39,463 bases of DNA, taken from positions 1 to 39,463 of the IMG/VR virus record IMGVR_UViG_2875722834_000003; one strand, 5' to 3'. Positions 2,490 through 38,543 of this stretch are shown here, in pieces. Position 1 is the stretch's first letter. Each line of letters starts with the position of its first letter. The notes beneath the pieces were generated by a model that ran no database searches, was not told the DNA's origin, and saw nothing but the letters and a program-made list of their open reading frames with translations. The translations under genes were made by a program, and so were the position numbers. This stretch comes from a virus (Duplodnaviria; Heunggongvirae; Uroviricota; Caudoviricetes).

Positions 2490-2685
2490 TTCTGATCCTC
2501 TTCAAAAGGCTACCTGTTACTGGTCGATTTAAGTCAACCTTTACCGCTGATTCGTGGAACAGATACTCTCTTCCATCCTTAACCGGAGGTGGGAATATCC
2601 TGCATTCCCGAACCCATCGACGAACTGTTTCAAGGCTTCTTGGACGTCGCTGGCGTGCGTTCCACTCCTGAAGTGTCAAGTACAT
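2467..2685 (-). CDS. xis: Excisionase (lambda Xis)
   Basis: 72 aa MYLTLQEWNARQRRPRSLETVRRWVRECRIFPPPVKDGREYLFHESAVKVDLNRP..., matches recalled lambda Xis; 23-nt overlap with int start. Confidence 0.9.
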   Translation of the reverse strand: MYLTLQEWNARQRRPRSLETVRRWVRECRIFPPPVKDGREYLFHESAVKVDLNRPVTGSLLKRIRNGKKAKS

Positions 2686-2710
2686 CGCAAAGTCTCCGCA
2701 ATTACACGCA

Positions 2711-2733
2711 AGAAAAAACCGCCATCAGGCGGC
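2711..2733 (-). terminator. Intrinsic terminator (leftward transcription) between orf55 and xis
   Basis: Minus-strand RNA forms CCGCC-UGAU-GGCGG followed by UUUUUUCUU (plus strand AGAAAAAACCGCCATCAGGCGG). Confidence 0.5.
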
Positions 2734-2892
2734 TTGGTGTTCTTTCAGTTCTTCAATTCGAATATTGGTTACGTCTGCATGTGCTATCTGCGCCCACAGC
2801 ATCCAGTGGTCATAGCAGTCGCTGATGTTCTCGGCTTCGATAACTCTGTTGAATGGTTCTCCATTCCATTCACCTGTGACTCGGAAGTGCAT
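2725..2892 (-). CDS. Hypothetical small protein (55 aa) upstream of xis
   Basis: Not in ORF track (under 60 aa). ATG at 2890-2892 preceded by GGAGATGATAA; translation MHFRVTGEWNGEPFNRVIEAENISDCYDHWMLWAQIAHADVTNIRIEELKEHQAA; stop lies inside the terminator loop. Confidence 0.45.
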   Translation of the reverse strand: MHFRVTGEWNGEPFNRVIEAENISDCYDHWMLWAQIAHADVTNIRIEELKEHQAA

Positions 2893-2930
2893 TTATCATC
2901 TCCATAAAACAAAACTCGCCGTAGCGAGTT

Positions 2931-2960
2931 CAGATAAAAGAAATCCCCGCGAGTGCGAGG
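2931..2960 (-). terminator. Intrinsic terminator (leftward) downstream of the 249-aa gene
   Basis: Minus-strand RNA CCUCGC-ACUC-GCGGGG followed by AUUUCUUUUAU; same hairpin motif recurs at 18364-18382. Confidence 0.45.
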
Positions 2961-2992
2961 ACTGTTATTCACCTTTGACGGCAAGTTGCAGG

Positions 2993-3742
2993 TTAGCCAC
3001 GGTTAACCTCCTGCCGCGGCGCTGCTGGCAGCGATTTAATCCAAGCGGCTGCCAGAAGACGACTCCACGCATCCTTAGAATCCTCAGCGCCGTAATCAAT
3101 AATCGAATCGAATTCGTCTAGAATGGCTATCGTAGGCTCAACCGGCACCATCACCCAACCATCTGGAATCACCGGAGAGTTGCCACCCTGAACAGTAGGC
3201 ATATCCGGACCTTTGCGAATCGCCCTGGCAAGATCGATTGGGTCGTCGTACAACCAGTCACCTGTTTGCGGATGATTGGCTTCTGCCAATTGTGCAGCCC
3301 ACTCCAGGCCGTCTTTGTGTCCTTGCAGATAGTCCAGCGGTAACTCATCACTATTACTTACAGGTTCGGCCTGAAGCATGGCGGCGCGATAGGCGTTCCA
3401 GCCGACAGCTTTTCCGTGTTCAAACGCGCTGTCAAAGTCATCATCAATTTCCATCGCAGCGGGCACAGATACCGGCGCTGGCGGGGCGGTGTAAAGCGGC
3501 GTTACTTCTCGCAGCGGGTCGGCATAAGCATTGCCACTATCGAAGCTGACGTTGTTTTTTGCGCCGCCGCCTGACAGCAGCCACGCCACCGGCTCCTGCT
3601 CCATGCCAGCCGTCAGCGCTTCCAGTGCGATTTTGAAGATTTGCGCATCGAGTTGCGCTTCTTCAAAATCAGGGTAATGGGTTGTTACCGCAAGACGGCG
3701 CTCAAGCTTCTCAATCAACTGCTCTTTCGTAAATTCAGCCAT
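2993..3742 (-). CDS. Hypothetical strongly acidic early-left protein (249 aa)
   Basis: ORF track; ATG start at 3740-3742. By my residue count about 42 Asp/Glu against 18 Lys/Arg. No family recognised. Confidence 0.6.
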   Translation of the reverse strand: MAEFTKEQLIEKLERRLAVTTHYPDFEEAQLDAQIFKIALEALTAGMEQEPVAWLLSGGGAKNNVSFDSGNAYADPLREVTPLYTAPPAPVSVPAAMEIDDDFDSAFEHGKAVGWNAYRAAMLQAEPVSNSDELPLDYLQGHKDGLEWAAQLAEANHPQTGDWLYDDPIDLARAIRKGPDMPTVQGGNSPVIPDGWVMVPVEPTIAILDEFDSIIDYGAEDSKDAWSRLLAAAWIKSLPAAPRQEVNRG

Positions 3743-31871: not shown

Positions 31872-33868
31872 TGGCTAAAGCATGGAAAGATGTTATCGCC
31901 TCTCCACAGTATCAGGCGTTAGCACCAGAACAAAAAGCGCAGGCTCAGGAGCAATACTTCAATGAAGTCGTGGCCCCGCAAGCCGGAGAAAATGCAGAGC
32001 AGGCCAAACAAGCTTTCTATGCTGCCTATCCATTGCCATCTGTGCAGCCAGTGGAGACACAGCAACCAGTATCACAGCAACAACCACAGCAAAGTGGATT
32101 TATGTCTGATCTTGGTGAAGCCGTGAAAGAAACTGGTCGCGGACTGGTGCAGGCTGGCGTGAACGTGGCAAACATACCTGCATCAGTTGCCGATGCTGTA
32201 ACAAGCGCGGCGGCTTGGGCCGGAGGTAAACTCGGTATTGGCGATGGAACATATCAACCAGCGCCACGAGTAACAACGCAGGGATTAGAGCATGACTTTG
32301 GCCTTCAGCAAGGCGCGCTGACTCCACAAACTACAGAGGGCAGGGTATTTGCTGAGGCATTGCCTTACCTCACTCCTGCTGGCATTGAGAGAGCGGCAAC
32401 ACAGGCACCAACACTTGCTGGTCGAATTGCTCAGGGGGCAACTCGACTTCTCTCAGAAAACGCAGTTGGATCACTTGCTGCAAACAGTATGAAAGATGAT
32501 GCGGAAGCACTCGCTACCGATTTAGGTGTTGGCGTTCTGGCAGGCGGCGCTATTAACGCTGCTGGACGTGGTTTAGGTGCTGCTTATCGTGGCGTTCGCG
32601 GTGCTATTGCGCCAGAAGCGCAGCAAGCTATCAGATTTGCAGAGCGTGAAGGAGTTCCTCTGCACACCACAGACCTGTTACAACCCACTTCCCGCGTCGG
32701 AAAAATGGCGCAGACTACAGCAGAAAATATCCCTCTGGCTGGCACAAGCGGAATGAGAGCAACGCAACAGGAAGCGAGAAGCCAGTTGGTGCAGAGATTT
32801 GCCGATAAATTCGGTGAGTATGATCCAGCGGTTGTTATTGACAGCCTTAAAGCGAAAACATCAGGAATTCGTCGTGCCGCCGGTAATCGACTGGAGCAGG
32901 TTCAGAATGCTATGGCTGGAGTAAACATTCAGCCTGCGCGAGCAATTCAGCAGATTGATACAGAAATATCTAACCTGCAGAAGCTTGGTAAGGTCGCCGA
33001 TAACGAGACTATTTCAAAACTTCAGTCCTATCGTGATGAGCTTGTTCGCAATGCTGGTCCTGATGGTCCGGTAAATCTGGATTTGAAGCAATTAAGCGAT
33101 CTGCGCAGCCAGTTCAGAATGGACGTGAAGGGTGAACGACCAGTGTTACCAAACCGTTCCGATGCTGCCATTCAGCGCGTTTACAAGGCGATGACAGACG
33201 ATATCAATGGTGCCATTGGTCAGAATCTTGGCAACGATACTCTCCGTAAATATCAGCAGGCCAATGCCGTATACGCTGACGAAGCGGCGAAACTAAAGAA
33301 TACCAGGCTGAAGAATGTTCTCATGAAAGGCGACCTGACGCCGGAAGTTGTCAACAACATGCTATTCAGCAAGAACAAATCGGAAATTAAGACGCTGTAT
33401 AACTCAGTTGGTCGTGTTGGCAGGGCGCAAATGCGCAATGGCATCATTGGAAAGGCGATGGAGAAATCTGGCGGATCCCCTGACCAGTTCCTTCGGCAGC
33501 TTAACATCCTGCAAAACCAGACTGGCATCACATTTAAAGGTCAGGAAGCCGCTTATCTGAAAGGATTGAAAAACTACCTGCAATCCACGCAGCAGGCTGC
33601 AAAAGCGGCAGTAACAACACCAACAGGGCAGCAAACCATCCCGTTCATTATCGGGTATGGGACGGCAATGAACCCGGCGACAACTGGCGCAGCGGTAAGC
33701 TACGGACTTCTTACTCGCGCCTATGAGAGCGAGCCATTCAGAAATGCAATGCTCCGAATGGCAAACACACCACGCGGATCAACAGCGTTTGAGAAAGCCA
33801 TGCAGCAGGCGCAAAAGGCCATTAACGCCCTGACTCAGGGTGCCAAGTCTGATGCGTTGTCAGAATAG
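31871..33868 (+). CDS. Ejection protein (P22 gp16 type)
   Basis: 665 aa, at the gp16 position; last gene of the rightward morphogenesis operon. Confidence 0.7.
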   Translation: MAKAWKDVIASPQYQALAPEQKAQAQEQYFNEVVAPQAGENAEQAKQAFYAAYPLPSVQPVETQQPVSQQQPQQSGFMSDLGEAVKETGRGLVQAGVNVANIPASVADAVTSAAAWAGGKLGIGDGTYQPAPRVTTQGLEHDFGLQQGALTPQTTEGRVFAEALPYLTPAGIERAATQAPTLAGRIAQGATRLLSENAVGSLAANSMKDDAEALATDLGVGVLAGGAINAAGRGLGAAYRGVRGAIAPEAQQAIRFAEREGVPLHTTDLLQPTSRVGKMAQTTAENIPLAGTSGMRATQQEARSQLVQRFADKFGEYDPAVVIDSLKAKTSGIRRAAGNRLEQVQNAMAGVNIQPARAIQQIDTEISNLQKLGKVADNETISKLQSYRDELVRNAGPDGPVNLDLKQLSDLRSQFRMDVKGERPVLPNRSDAAIQRVYKAMTDDINGAIGQNLGNDTLRKYQQANAVYADEAAKLKNTRLKNVLMKGDLTPEVVNNMLFSKNKSEIKTLYNSVGRVGRAQMRNGIIGKAMEKSGGSPDQFLRQLNILQNQTGITFKGQEAAYLKGLKNYLQSTQQAAKAAVTTPTGQQTIPFIIGYGTAMNPATTGAAVSYGLLTRAYESEPFRNAMLRMANTPRGSTAFEKAMQQAQKAINALTQGAKSDALSE

Positions 33869-33957
33869 CTTCGCAAACACCAGGAACGTGCAAAAACCAA
33901 ATATGTAGAACGCAATATTCATCATATCTCTTTGCATAAATCCTCCGTAATGGATGG

Positions 33958-34218
33958 TTAGTTGCTGTCTTTTTTATATAGCTCCTTTAGCGTGTCAAAG
34001 ACAATTTTCTTAACCATATCAGATTGTTGTTCTGCCATACGCTCTGCATCGTCAATGTAAACTGGTGCAGAGCTTTGTTTAGCCAATGATTCTTCAATCG
34101 CTGCAATTATCTCTGAGTTCAGCGACCTGTTATTCATCTTCGCGCGCTGTTTAATTTTCGCGTGGAGTTCATGCGGAAGTCTCAAGTGAAACTGCGCCTC
34201 GTCGTATTTGCTGTACAT
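33958..34218 (-). CDS. mnt: Mnt-like ribbon-helix-helix repressor
   Basis: ORF track 33958..34251; ATG 34216-34218 gives 86 aa MYSKYDEAQFHLRLPHELHAKIKQRAKMNNRSLNSEI...DDAERMAEQQSDMVKKIVFDTLKELYKK, aligning with recalled P22 Mnt (HFNFRMPMEV...NDAERLADEQSELVKKMVFDTLKDLYKK). Confidence 0.8.
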   Translation of the reverse strand: MYSKYDEAQFHLRLPHELHAKIKQRAKMNNRSLNSEIIAAIEESLAKQSSAPVYIDDAERMAEQQSDMVKKIVFDTLKELYKKDSN

Positions 34219-34291
34219 CCTTGATGCCTCACCAGTTGGGTGGAATGGCATCGTAACCTACTGGATAAATACTCAATAGTACCATTTCGGT

Positions 34292-34314
34292 ATGCAATCA
34301 CATCATGATTGCAT
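34292..34314. promoter_or_regulatory. Perfect 9-bp inverted repeat (ATGCAATCA-catca-TGATTGCAT), candidate RHH operator
   Basis: Read directly; lies in the 131-bp gap between mnt and the HNH gene. Confidence 0.5.
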
Positions 34315-34349
34315 CATATCATTCGTCTGGAGCAATGAAATGTCAGATA

Positions 34350-34850
34350 TCACCTACTCAACAGATGGTCAGCAACCATGTTTGCTGCCTTATAAGCTAT
34401 AGCAGCTTCATCAATGGTGTTGAATCTCCCAAGGGTTATGTTTTTACCTGAGACATTTATCTGAGCTTGCCATTGATTTCTGGCTTGACAGAAAGTTACC
34501 CCCTTGATTCCAGCATTGCTATTTCGAGGTCCGACATTTAATGCATTTACGACTCTGCTGACATCCCTAAGGTTTGAGATTGCGTTATTTCTTCTGTTTC
34601 TATCAATGTGGTCAATCTCTTGTTTTGGCCATTCGCCATATACATACAGCCAGGCAAGTCTATGTGCAAAATATCTTACGCCATCAATATTAATTGCGTT
34701 ATATCCATAAGAAATTGTGCCAGCAACTTTCCCAACAGCACCTCTGGCGCTTAATTTCTTTTTCCAAGTGAAAATTCCTGTTTCTTTATTGTAATCGAGA
34801 ACCTCCATAAGGCGCTCCCGAGTTACTACCTCGTGACGTCTCTTACTCAT
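34350..34850 (-). CDS. HNH endonuclease with AP2-type DNA-binding domain (homing-endonuclease-like)
   Basis: ORF track 34350..34892 begins at TTG; ATG 34848-34850 with GGAG 7 nt upstream gives 166 aa; motifs [13 protein letters not shown]...[18 protein letters not shown] (HNH) and C-terminal [15 protein letters not shown]...[17 protein letters not shown] (AP2-like); about 37 % GC. Confidence 0.75.
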
Positions 34851-34872
34851 TATTTTCTCCGGAATGTTTATT

Positions 34873-37020
34873 ATGCCAGAACAATTATACAACGTTGTTG
34901 TTTCACAACCAAGTCAGTTATTTACTTTAGCTCGCTCGTTTAAAGCAAATGCCAATGGCAAAATTTATATCGGTAAAATTGACACTGACCCTGTAAATCC
35001 TGAAAACCAGATTCAGGTTTATGTGGAGAACGAAGACGGCTCTCACGTTCCTGTATCCCAGCCAATCATCATTAACGCCGCTGGTTATCCGGTATATAAC
35101 GGACAGATTGCCAAATTCGTTACCGTGCAAGGCCATTCTATGGCTGTTTATGATGCATATGGTGCTCAACAGTTCTATTTTCCTAATGTGCTTAAGTATG
35201 ACCCTGACCAGTTCAGGGCAATTATAGAGTCACCAGAAGGTGCTGGACACGTAGGATATCAGTATCGCAGGAATACAGGTGCGACCATGAGAATGGTAAG
35301 CGATGTGCTGGATGAGCGTGTCAGCCTTTGGGATTTTCACTGCGATTCATCAGGTAACGTAATTCAGCCCGGGCCAACTGTGGATAGTCGGCAGTACATT
35401 CAAAAGGCTATTGACGCGATATACGAAGCTGGCGGTGGAACACTAATTATCCCAACGGGAACATGGTATCTAAACTCGTATGGTGTTCCAGATAAAATTT
35501 CTAACTATGGTGGAGTAATCCACTGGCGCTCTCGTGTCAATATTCACTTTGAAGCCGGTTCTACGCTAAAGCTGACAAACTACTTCAATGAACGCGGCTA
35601 TTGCGTTATCTGTGGTTTTGACGGTAATGACCCCGCAACGTCTGGCGATTTGCGCGATGCAATGATTACGGGTAATGGAACCATTCACTGCGGGGACAAT
35701 ATACAGGCGGTGGGAGGCTCGCTAGCATATGCGATAGGCACTGGGAGATCATACAACGTAAGCGTAAGGGATATACACATTACTGGTGGGGACCTGACTT
35801 GGGCCGTGACACTTGGATGGAATGGTTATGGCAATAATACTGTTGTAGATGGGGTCACTGTTACTGAGGTTAAGAAGACTGAGGTTGCCCGTAACGTTGA
35901 CCAGTCCCTCTTCTATGTGGGGTGTCAGTTCTCTGGTATACAGAACTGCTATATGAAACCTTCTGAATCAGGGTTGGCCGCAAAAATATCAGCAGCAGTG
36001 GAACTTCACCAGTCTGGCACTTTTTGCCTGAACAACCAGATGTATGGATTCATGCGTGGTGTTTATGTTGTTTTGCACGGACGTGAAACGGCAGGCAGCG
36101 GTCTATTCATGAACAATATTCGTGTATCTGGTAACACTGCGTACATTAATGGTCAGTTTGTGACTGTAGGTGCGGATAGTATAGATTTTGATACTCATGT
36201 TTCTGATGTAATTATATCCGATAACATTTGTACCATTATGAACCCTGTAGACTCTGCTCCATTGGTTAGATGCTTTATATCATCTGACTTGTTTGTAGAG
36301 GCCCCGCCGGATAATGAAACTGCGCGCGTACTGGTTGATGGGAATATCTTCTTAGCGCCAACAACTACCCCAGACAGTTTATTTTTCTTTTACAGAGTAA
36401 GCAGCCGTGGGTTTTACTTTAGCAACAACATGTGTGATTGCCGTCGTATAATTTCTGGGGATGGGGCCGGCACTGGTATTGTAGAACTACGCGATATAAT
36501 CTGGGACGCATCCAATAAGATTGGGCCTACTTGGATAGGTCAACGTGGCGGTAATGCGAACATGTTTGAGTTTTACGTCGCCAATATTTTACGCTGTAAA
36601 TTTGAAATATCTATGCCATATGTGGACACTAGCATGGCTAGTATTTTCTACGCGCCAGATACGGCCAATATAACGTTTACAGTAGTCAAAGTTGATCCAG
36701 AAAATATACCATCTTCTGTAACTGCAGTTAGCATCTCAGAGGCTAACAAAAACCGGGGAACAAATTACTTTGAGTTCCCGGAAACTATATCCTTCTCATC
36801 TTTCAACACCGCGGGAGCAGTATTTTGCTACAGCACATCAACTAACTATGCCTGGTGTGGAAGTGCAACGGCATTGTCAAAGTCAGGAGTTTCTGGGCTG
36901 GTAACTCCTGGTGAATATGGTGTCAAAGATAACGGTCAGCTTGGTGGGGTAGGATATAATGATACAGGCGCAGCCAGGAACTGGAGCCAGCGTGTTTTAT
37001 TAAAAAGCGCAATAGAATAA
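34873..37020 (+). CDS. Tailspike protein (P22-type head-binding domain plus beta-helix receptor-binding/depolymerase domain)
   Basis: ORF track 34864..37020; ATG 34873 chosen by alignment to the P22 tailspike N-terminus (NVVVS..., [33 protein letters not shown]); the remaining about 600 aa differ from P22. Confidence 0.85.
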
Positions 37021-37055: not shown

Positions 37056-38543
37056 TTATTTTTTGTATACCAGTATTGTCATATCTCCCTTATTTAAAAC
37101 TTTTTCAGGCTTCCCATTTTTAGATGAAATGGCGTTGATACACGACTGTATGTCTCCGCACTTTTCATGCCCATCAATAGCGATAAAGTATTTTCCATTT
37201 GATGGCATTGCTTCTTTACTGTACCAACTTCTCATGGTTTGATATCGAGGTGAGTTAAAATCAATAGACCCATTTTCAGAAATATCTACAGGTGCGATAA
37301 CTACCTCCCCATTGGAAGCCCAGAATGTAGTTAGGCTTTTATTCCAGTAGTCACCATAACCATAACTCAAATTATTATCTAGTAAAAACGCAGAATAATC
37401 CTTTATCTCCCGTTCAGAATCTTCGTAAGTTTTATTTCCAAAGTTAAAGGTTATAGCGCTCGACAGTACAAATAAAATGCAAATGGCATATGCTAGCCAT
37501 TTTGTCATTCTGCTATGAGCAACTGAATATACTATGAACACAAAAGGTGCAATATTCACAAAAAAGCGAGGTATAGGCTGGCTTGGGTCTGGATTGCTTA
37601 CTGTATAAGCTGAGATAATTCCAGCGGCGGAAAGTAGGGATAGCATAAAAAAATAACTAGAACTATCTTTCCTCAGAATCCCTGTTATGCATACATAACA
37701 AAATAACCCCCCCACAAGAATAAATGAGGCTATATATAGGGAGTGCTGCCTGAGGAAGAAAATGTTAAACATTTCACCAACCGTGAGAATCAGTTGATGT
37801 GCGTTCCCCTGCATTGTAACAAAATCAACAATATTAAAAGGTTGAGAGTCGATTCCCATTAATTTTGGTATTGTATGATTCAGAGCAATACCATAAAAAA
37901 TAGCAAGGAGAATGAAATTTACTAATTTTGTTTCTTTTCTGATGACAAAAATGAGTTCAGTAATCAGAATTGGAAGGAGATAAGTAGGCGCAGCCCACAT
38001 ATCTGAGGAACAAACTAATAACCCAAAAATGCCAACTATGGCATATGATAAAAGCCCTTGATCTCTATGTGCTTTCATTGCCATAAGGCATGTTAGCATT
38101 CCAAAAGCAACAGTAGAGTAGTGAGCAAATGGATGCTGAACAAATCCATCTGTCCAATATATGTGCGGCAAAGCAGCAAGAGGCACTGCGCAAACTAGTA
38201 ATGAACTTCGCTTGTTTAATTTCTTTGATATTGTAGATGCGATAATTATGACGCTGAATGCAAAAAAAGCAGATCCAAATATCAGCATTGGAGCGCCATA
38301 ACTTCCTAATATCAAATAAAACAGAAAGTATACAGGGTACAATGTAAAGTACCAGTTATCCGGTGTCGGGTTCCAATCAGTAAGAGACTTGAAACCGTGT
38401 TCCTTAAACTCAAGCCATACAACAGGACCATTTACTCCATCAGCATCTATTCTGAAGTATATATAAGAAAGATAAGAGATAGATATTGCGCATAAGAGCA
38501 ATATTACAATCTCTATTGATTTTTTATTTATTAGGTGTTTCAT
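37056..38543 (-). CDS. gtrC: GtrC-like serotype-specific O-antigen glucosyltransferase (polytopic membrane protein)
   Basis: 495 aa, multiple hydrophobic segments plus a C-terminal soluble domain; directly downstream of gtrB with ATGA overlap; about 27-33 % GC in sampled lines. Confidence 0.6.

Follow-up and report, generated by a model that had tools for sequence, protein, structure and literature searches.

Mnt and Arc are textbook models of ribbon-helix-helix (RHH) DNA recognition, and in phage P22 the operator overlaps the divergent promoter Pant, which drives arc and ant, and Mnt represses synthesis of the antirepressor. In the P22 record the mnt operator is annotated directly 5′ of the Pmnt -35 hexamer, with the core AGGTCCACGGTGGACCT. 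Published genomes also include 'ant morons' with mnt only, those of ST64T, ST104, Para1 and L (PMC2629481, PMC8022706), and the orphan gene was noted earlier, without explanation, in ST64T and L. In ST64T, ST104 and L (Villafane et al. 2008, PMC2629481; Zaworski et al. 2021, PMC8022706) the lone mnt faces away from the tailspike gene and a dyad is fused to the tailspike leader; these phages carry the recognition strand QFNLRLP, the dyad AAGACCAC-N-GTGGTCTT, a canonical leader hairpin and an extra small gene, orf62.

The window described here, the whole stretch of 39,463 nucleotides that was analysed, is a P22-like (Lederbergvirus) prophage, in which a left-end integrase is followed by the early region, the virion genes, the injection-protein genes (to 33868) and the tailspike gene at 34873–37020. 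The slot between the injection-protein gene and the tailspike gene, which is the slot of immI in P22 and is likewise used on the opposite strand, holds one gene only, encoding a Mnt-family repressor of the QFHLRLP class. The layout is thus that of ST64T, ST104 and L in both the outward-facing lone mnt and the dyad fused to the tailspike leader, but the window differs from them in its QFHLRLP strand, a leader of the type found in phage Sf101, the lack of an extra ORF, and an HNH insertion. Sf101 and IME10 are 97–98% identical to the window in DNA sequence over 33850–34354, a segment that spans mnt, the dyad, an inverted repeat and the start of the tailspike gene; neither has the HNH cassette, their mnt is directly divergent from the tailspike gene, and the Sf101 repeat, unlike that of the window, is the majority G allele described below. 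Kapi1 carries this HNH cassette too, likewise just behind tailspike codon 5, with 98.6% identity over 34326–34900, but there it lies downstream of a complete mnt-arc-ant set with a canonical leader, whereas in the window it sits beside an orphan mnt and an Sf101-type leader. We found no literature statements on mnt or HNH genes in Sf101 or Kapi1.

No homologue of arc or ant was detected anywhere in the window by tblastn with P22 and Kapi1 Ant and Arc queries, in agreement with the initial annotation of this DNA, and tblastn with JEP4 KilA and Rha, the VSe13 antirepressor fragment, SieA and orf59a returned only mnt itself. Downstream of the tailspike gene, at 37056–38543 on the minus strand, is a gene for a 495-aa multi-pass membrane protein with no Pfam match, in the slot that O-antigen modification genes (gtrC, acyltransferases) occupy in relatives.

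The mnt-like gene (33958–34218, minus strand) encodes 86 amino acids with an N-terminal RHH domain and a C-terminal Mnt tetramerisation domain, and by its sequence the product is a Mnt-family repressor homologue. The initial annotation had described a Mnt-like RHH repressor with an altered recognition strand, and the domain matches bear this out: the product matches Pfam Arc (PF03869, E=1.1e-14) and the Mnt NMR structure PDB 1MNT (residues 6–79, E=6.5e-19), while the tetramerisation domain is represented by Repressor_Mnt (PF11423, E=3.3e-14) and the PDB 1QEY peptide (E=1.7e-8). The position of the gene, between an injection-protein gene and the tailspike gene and on the strand opposite to the late operon, is that of the Mnt family. 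With P22 Mnt it shares the Arc-type RHH, the C-terminal tetramerisation helix and 49% identity, but the recognition β-strand reads QFHLRLP rather than HFNFRMP, and at the P22 recognition residues Arg2 is replaced by Tyr or Lys, His6 by Gln and Asn8 by His. The reading frame is open as far as an upstream ATG, at 34251 (33958–34251, minus strand), whereas the alignment with P22 Mnt starts at the internal ATG at 34218, and the 86-aa form is that given by PGAP annotation in relatives; ATG 34251 falls within what is predicted to be the -10 of Pmnt, which makes 34218 the likely start. The homologue in Sf101 (locus L001, 2507–2800), several RefSeq phage records and PHROG 795 are labelled 'partition protein ATPase' or 'chromosome segregation ATPase'; an RHH protein of 86–97 aa cannot be an ATPase, and the label looks like a propagated annotation error.

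The module with the window allele is common: of 5426 complete E. coli genomes, 287 (~5%) have it, nearly always beside a tailspike gene. The emphasis of the initial annotation on there being no antirepressor to regulate was overstated as a novelty, given the mnt-only ant morons of ST64T, ST104, Para1 and L cited above; an orphan mnt is an already recognised and ordinary configuration, and it is the QFHLRLP specificity allele that was previously uncharacterised. The gene is intact at 87 of 88 homologous loci, with residues 1–32 nearly invariant, and pairwise dN/dS (NG86) is 0.14 overall and 0.04 over codons 1–45, the DNA-binding half; these low ratios and the near-universal integrity of the gene show that mnt is maintained by purifying selection. 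They also weigh against the view that mnt is a decaying remnant of immI without present function, which we regard as very unlikely. A lack of function has been raised in the phage L paper for its own mnt-like gene (PMC8022706), and decay would fit a window that is without ant, arc and a Pant-like promoter and in which the spacer of Pmnt is suboptimal. Yet the operator dyad is kept across genera, and the allele is carried by the sizeable share of E. coli genomes just given. Moreover, the sole clear pseudogene, in Citrobacter sp. (locus L097, 1114–1452), has a stop at codon 5 together with a degraded dyad (AGTAC for GGTAC), so that gene and site decay together, and it is this locus that gives the picture of real decay.

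The predicted promoter of the gene, Pmnt, lies at 34250–34276 on the minus strand, with a -35 of TTGAGT (34276–34271), a 15-bp spacer and a -10 of TACGAT (34255–34250). In an alignment anchored on the P22 annotation it is the homologue of P22 Pmnt (TTGAGA-N17-TATCAT); it scores under the threshold of our consensus scan. P22, L, Gally and JEP4 all have a 17-bp spacer and the other aligned relatives one of 16–17 bp; the 15 bp of the window, shared with Sf101 and E1V33, amount to a 2-bp deletion relative to JEP4. With a spacer of this length the predicted promoter may be weak. A second minus-strand promoter-like site, CTGACA-N17-AATGAT (34346–34318), whose -35 overlaps the start codon of the relic tailspike start described below in the same leader type, might be used in its place.

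Directly 5′ of the predicted -35 is the dyad AGTACCATTTCGGTATG (34278–34294), a candidate Mnt operator with the core TACC-N5-GGTA at 34280–34292, which in the window reads TACCATTTCGGTA. It is the positional homologue of the P22 operator: it adjoins the -35 of Pmnt just as Omnt does, the two sites aligning in register, and its half-site centres are 9 bp apart (TACC/GGTA), as they are in Omnt (GTCC/GGAC) and in Oarc (TAGA/TCTA). The cores themselves are distinct, TACC-N5-GGTA in the window and GGTCCAC-N-GTGGACC in P22, and the N5 centre of the window dyad is asymmetric, unlike that of P22 Omnt.

When mnt upstream regions are aligned on ATTG(A/T)(G/T), a conserved motif at the -35, the operator slot is seen to change in step with the recognition strand. 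Repressors with HFNFRMP (P22 and a Pluralibacter prophage) have AGGTCCAC-N-GTGGACCT in this slot, the Pluralibacter prophage thus combining the P22 strand with the P22 operator; those with QFNLRLP (L and Gally) have AAGACCAC-N-GTGGTCTT; and those with QFHLRL followed by P, T or S (the window, Sf101, 81EVA, JEP4, VSe13, Escherichia sp. E1V33, Buttiauxella and Serratia) have [AG]TACC-N5-GGTAC. The dyad is kept in all of the QFHLRL-type loci examined, which represent five genera and include loci without the inverted repeat, with conservation seen in Escherichia, Salmonella phage VSe13, Buttiauxella and Serratia. Of 80 further IMG/VR loci, 74 have it at the same fixed offset, and the other six include loci with the L/Gally-type operator. 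TACC-N5-GGTA has a single match in the 39-kb window, and a search for a second copy of the dyad, in the window and within 2.5 kb in 80 relatives, gave chance-level extras only. On the basis of positional homology and co-variation, the TACC-N5-GGTA dyad is likely to be the Mnt site, and by analogy with P22 Mnt at Pmnt, a Mnt tetramer would bind at 34280–34292 and act on its own promoter.

The initial annotation had instead drawn attention to a 'perfect 23-bp palindrome' 74 bp upstream of the repressor gene. This inverted repeat (34292–34314, plus strand) overlaps the outer edge of the candidate operator with its first bases, and its 9-bp arms, ATGCAATCA at 34292–34300 and TGATTGCAT at 34306–34314, are indeed 100% complementary, but the 5-nt spacer CATCA is not self-complementary; similarly, the distance holds (73 nt) for ATG 34218 but is 40 nt to the start of the longest ORF at 34251. 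Inverted repeats with perfect arms of 9 bp or more and a spacer of up to 10 nt occur at four loci of the window (as five overlapping matches), where shuffled sequences give 1.4 on average, so the repeat alone is not statistically exceptional, and the arm TGATTGCAT has 26 matches in the window against 20 expected, which is chance level. The perfect repeat is moreover a minority allele: most relatives carry TGGTTGCAT, with eight of nine positions matching as DNA, and about 85–90% of Sf101-type leaders have a G at the position of 34308, which breaks the symmetry of the DNA while keeping a U·G pair in the plus-strand RNA.

The repeat is confined to the Sf101/IME10-type tailspike leader and is absent from loci with the same recognition strand and a canonical leader (JEP4, VSe13, 81EVA and Buttiauxella), as well as from Serratia. 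An association with the HNH gene, which the initial annotation had entertained, does not hold, as the repeat is present in Sf101 and IME10, which have no HNH gene, and absent from Kapi1, which has one; it tracks the Sf101/IME10 junction rather than HNH and thus belongs to the mnt-tailspike junction. Nor does it resemble an intrinsic terminator, there being no terminator-like site in 33800–35000 and an AU-rich stem with no T-run after it on either strand. Rfam yielded nothing credible, either over the whole window at the gathering threshold or over 33800–35000 at E values up to 10.

The repeat at 34292–34314 is probably not the Mnt operator, to judge from these comparisons, and is probably the wrong target for Mnt binding. 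The operator role implied by the initial annotation, with Mnt acting through the 9-bp repeat on mnt, on the HNH gene or on rightward transcription, would make sense of the most conspicuous symmetric element upstream of mnt; the repeat also abuts the conserved dyad, so that a Mnt footprint would touch it, and E1V33 retains an inverted repeat at the same position with both arms changed. We nevertheless consider this role unlikely. The equivalent of the P22 operator, by position, is the neighbouring dyad at 34280–34292; JEP4, VSe13, 81EVA, Buttiauxella and Serratia share the recognition strand and manage without the repeat; and the great majority of repeat-bearing loci have the asymmetric allele (~85–90%). 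The arm centres are 14 bp apart, as against 9 bp in P22 Omnt and Oarc, and the E1V33 change alters both half-sites while the recognition residues of its Mnt are unchanged.

The variation within the repeat fits, modestly, a hairpin in RNA. Across 21 distinct sequences, 98% identical, 98.9% of cells form standard pairs when read on the plus strand and 87.8% when read on the minus strand; all five types of stem transition preserve plus-strand pairing, and one position shows U·G, U-A and C-G pairs. Two transversions break a stem pair, and one stem change, in two loci, is uncompensated. The E1V33 leader has ATTCAAT-N9-ATTGAAT in the same place, a compensated change from G-C to U-A that affects both arms. 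We estimate the directional plus-strand signal at about p=0.05 from the five transition types; because the hairpin sequences are 98% identical, shuffle-based covariation controls are flat and uninformative. The predicted hairpin folds with -9.0 to -11.6 kcal/mol (-9.0 to -9.6 for the hairpin here, with -9.6 for 34292–34314), the E1V33 version being weak at -2.6 kcal/mol.

About 30 nt before the tailspike start, canonical leaders carry a stem-loop of their own, CCGUAGC-CAU-GCUGCGG, with a folding energy of -10.4 kcal/mol. It is conserved in P22 (locus L005, 3040–3205), L, Kapi1, JEP4 and many prophages (loci L003 and L006–L011), and upstream of P22 gene 9 a portion of it occurs in duplicate. 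Most of its variation consists of wobble or compensated changes, as in Buttiauxella, LAM_HS and Gally; in some variants a pair is lost. This canonical stem-loop has no Rfam entry, and we found no published function for it.

The most likely identity of the repeat, as far as comparison of leaders can tell, is an RNA hairpin of the Sf101-type tailspike leader, formed in the plus-strand late transcript; on the rightward late mRNA the stem-loop would precede the tailspike ribosome-binding site (RBS) by about 15 nt. Alternatively, the repeat could be a functionless junction scar, left when a deletion joined the operator flank GGTATGCAAT to the leader motif GATT..TTGCAT, and persisting by recent ancestry. 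Its arms do resemble the flanks of the interval that would have been deleted from canonical leaders, GGTATGCAAT (in 81EVA) and GATTCCTTGCAT (upstream of the tailspike Shine-Dalgarno sequence), repeats of similar size are found at four window loci where 1.4 are expected, and conservation says little among Sf101-type leaders that are 98% identical. A scar does not, however, account well for stem transitions that in every observed case keep plus-strand pairing, with U-A, U·G and C-G all represented at one position, for the retention of the repeat by a two-sided change in the divergent E1V33 leader, or for the presence in canonical leaders of a different hairpin of similar stability in the same place. 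We regard the scar as a possible but doubtful explanation.

The leader hairpin is no longer next to a working gene start in the window. At 34329–34354 (plus strand) is a relic of the tailspike start, with a GGAG Shine-Dalgarno sequence at 34329–34332 and the first five codons, ATGTCAGATATCACC, at 34340–34354; it is identical to the tailspike starts of Sf101 and IME10, and homology to both phages ends at 34354. An HNH cassette of approximately 34355–34872 is inserted exactly after tailspike codon 5. Its gene (34350–34850, minus strand) encodes 166 aa with an HNH_3 motif (PF13392, E=2.1e-16) and an AP2-like domain, and from the motif and the pattern of the junction we interpret it as a free-standing HNH homing endonuclease gene of putative activity. 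The tailspike gene itself (34873–37020, plus strand) encodes a P22-type head-binding domain (PF09008, E=1.2e-64) and has a new start, MPEQLY, derived from the cassette side. As a consequence of the insertion after codon 5, the hairpin, the old RBS and the five codons are a stranded relic, 0.5 kb from the working start. The same junction is occupied in Kapi1 and at several IMG/VR loci and is empty in Sf101 and IME10; the best explanation is that the cassette arrived later than the hairpin and leader in the lineage of the window.

A different HNH gene (179 aa, 35% identical) is found at the same junction in E. coli (locus L094, 530–1114) and at four IMG/VR loci, and in JEP4 (locus L006, ~2207–2531) about 300 bp of AT-rich DNA are inserted at almost this point, after codon 4. 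The tailspike codon 5 junction (34340–34872 in the window; 2501–3076 in the Kapi1 locus, L003) is thus a recurrent point of insertion or exchange, and each of these inserts leaves a relic RBS and start codons, with the new tailspike start beyond it.

What an orphan Mnt controls is not obvious from its surroundings, as the initial annotation had also noted: there is no second operator, and no Pant-like promoter was found at or near the dyad, either in a plus-strand consensus scan or in an alignment to P22 Pant, where the -35 and -10 are not conserved. The P22 arrangement of an operator overlapping a divergent Pant that drives arc and ant is therefore not present in the window; without a Pant-like promoter, arc, ant or sar, the classical target of Mnt is gone and repression of ant in cis is impossible. 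Many relatives do carry antirepressor-like genes in this region. A QFHLRL-type mnt that still faces away from the tailspike gene is convergent with Rha, KilA or ORF6N antirepressor-like genes in Serratia and in 58 of 80 relatives, these 58 being of the JEP4 type; in the JEP4-type loci (L173–L219) and in Serratia (locus L096, 1072–1872) the antirepressor-like genes are preceded by Arc-like genes of their own. The JEP4-type layout is immI-like but unlike P22 in that mnt lies at the 3′ end of the antirepressor operon and not at its promoter. Among the relatives examined we found no locus in which a QFHLRL-type dyad overlaps an ant or arc promoter, and mnt points away from the tailspike leader in all examined relatives with an identifiable divergent flank.

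One role that needs no target in cis is that of a trans-acting immunity factor, with the orphan Mnt repressing ant promoters of incoming or co-resident P22-like phages that have the same operator, and so shielding the prophage against induction by antirepressor. Purifying selection on the protein and on its specificity would then be accounted for without a cis target, and there is a supply of Rha, KilA and ORF6N antirepressor-like genes beside QFHLRL-type mnt in many relatives. But those genes are convergent with mnt, no second TACC-N5-GGTA lies within 2.5 kb, none of the loci examined has the dyad over an ant or arc promoter, and the conservation of a cis operator beside the tailspike gene would be left unexplained; we consider immunity in trans improbable.

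The location of mnt suggests a different hypothesis, as in the examined relatives with an identifiable divergent flank mnt and its one operator lie right against the tailspike leader, and antirepressor-like genes are absent or convergent, which would fit a role at the tailspike boundary. Specifically, the QFHLRL Mnt clade could be a dedicated boundary regulator at the junction of moron and tailspike, not an antirepressor regulator, although we propose this only tentatively and rate its chances as low. A bound tetramer, leftward transcription from Pmnt, or both, would then set the transcription entering the tailspike gene; alternatively, a convergent upstream operon would be silenced by antisense or collision effects, and the adjacent leader RNA hairpin would belong to the same control point. 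Our preferred guess is that in a lysogen the bound tetramer and leftward Pmnt transcription may limit transcription into the tailspike gene or into convergent upstream genes. The boundary idea agrees with an earlier speculation that the moron affects read-through into the tailspike gene (PMC2629481).

Taking the locus as a whole, we think it fairly probable that it comprises an orphan Mnt, the dyad as its putative operator, the repeat as a leader hairpin, and a later HNH insertion. Orphan mnt genes are common, under purifying selection and consistently found beside the tailspike leader, which argues for a function that has gone unrecognised. Three natural pairings of recognition strand and operator can now be set side by side, HFNFRMP with GGTCCAC, QFNLRLP with AGACCAC, and QFHLRLP with TACC, and they may represent a natural specificity code. 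The interest of this prophage for the Mnt family is in this natural strand/operator pairing and in the unexplained conservation of an orphan Mnt.
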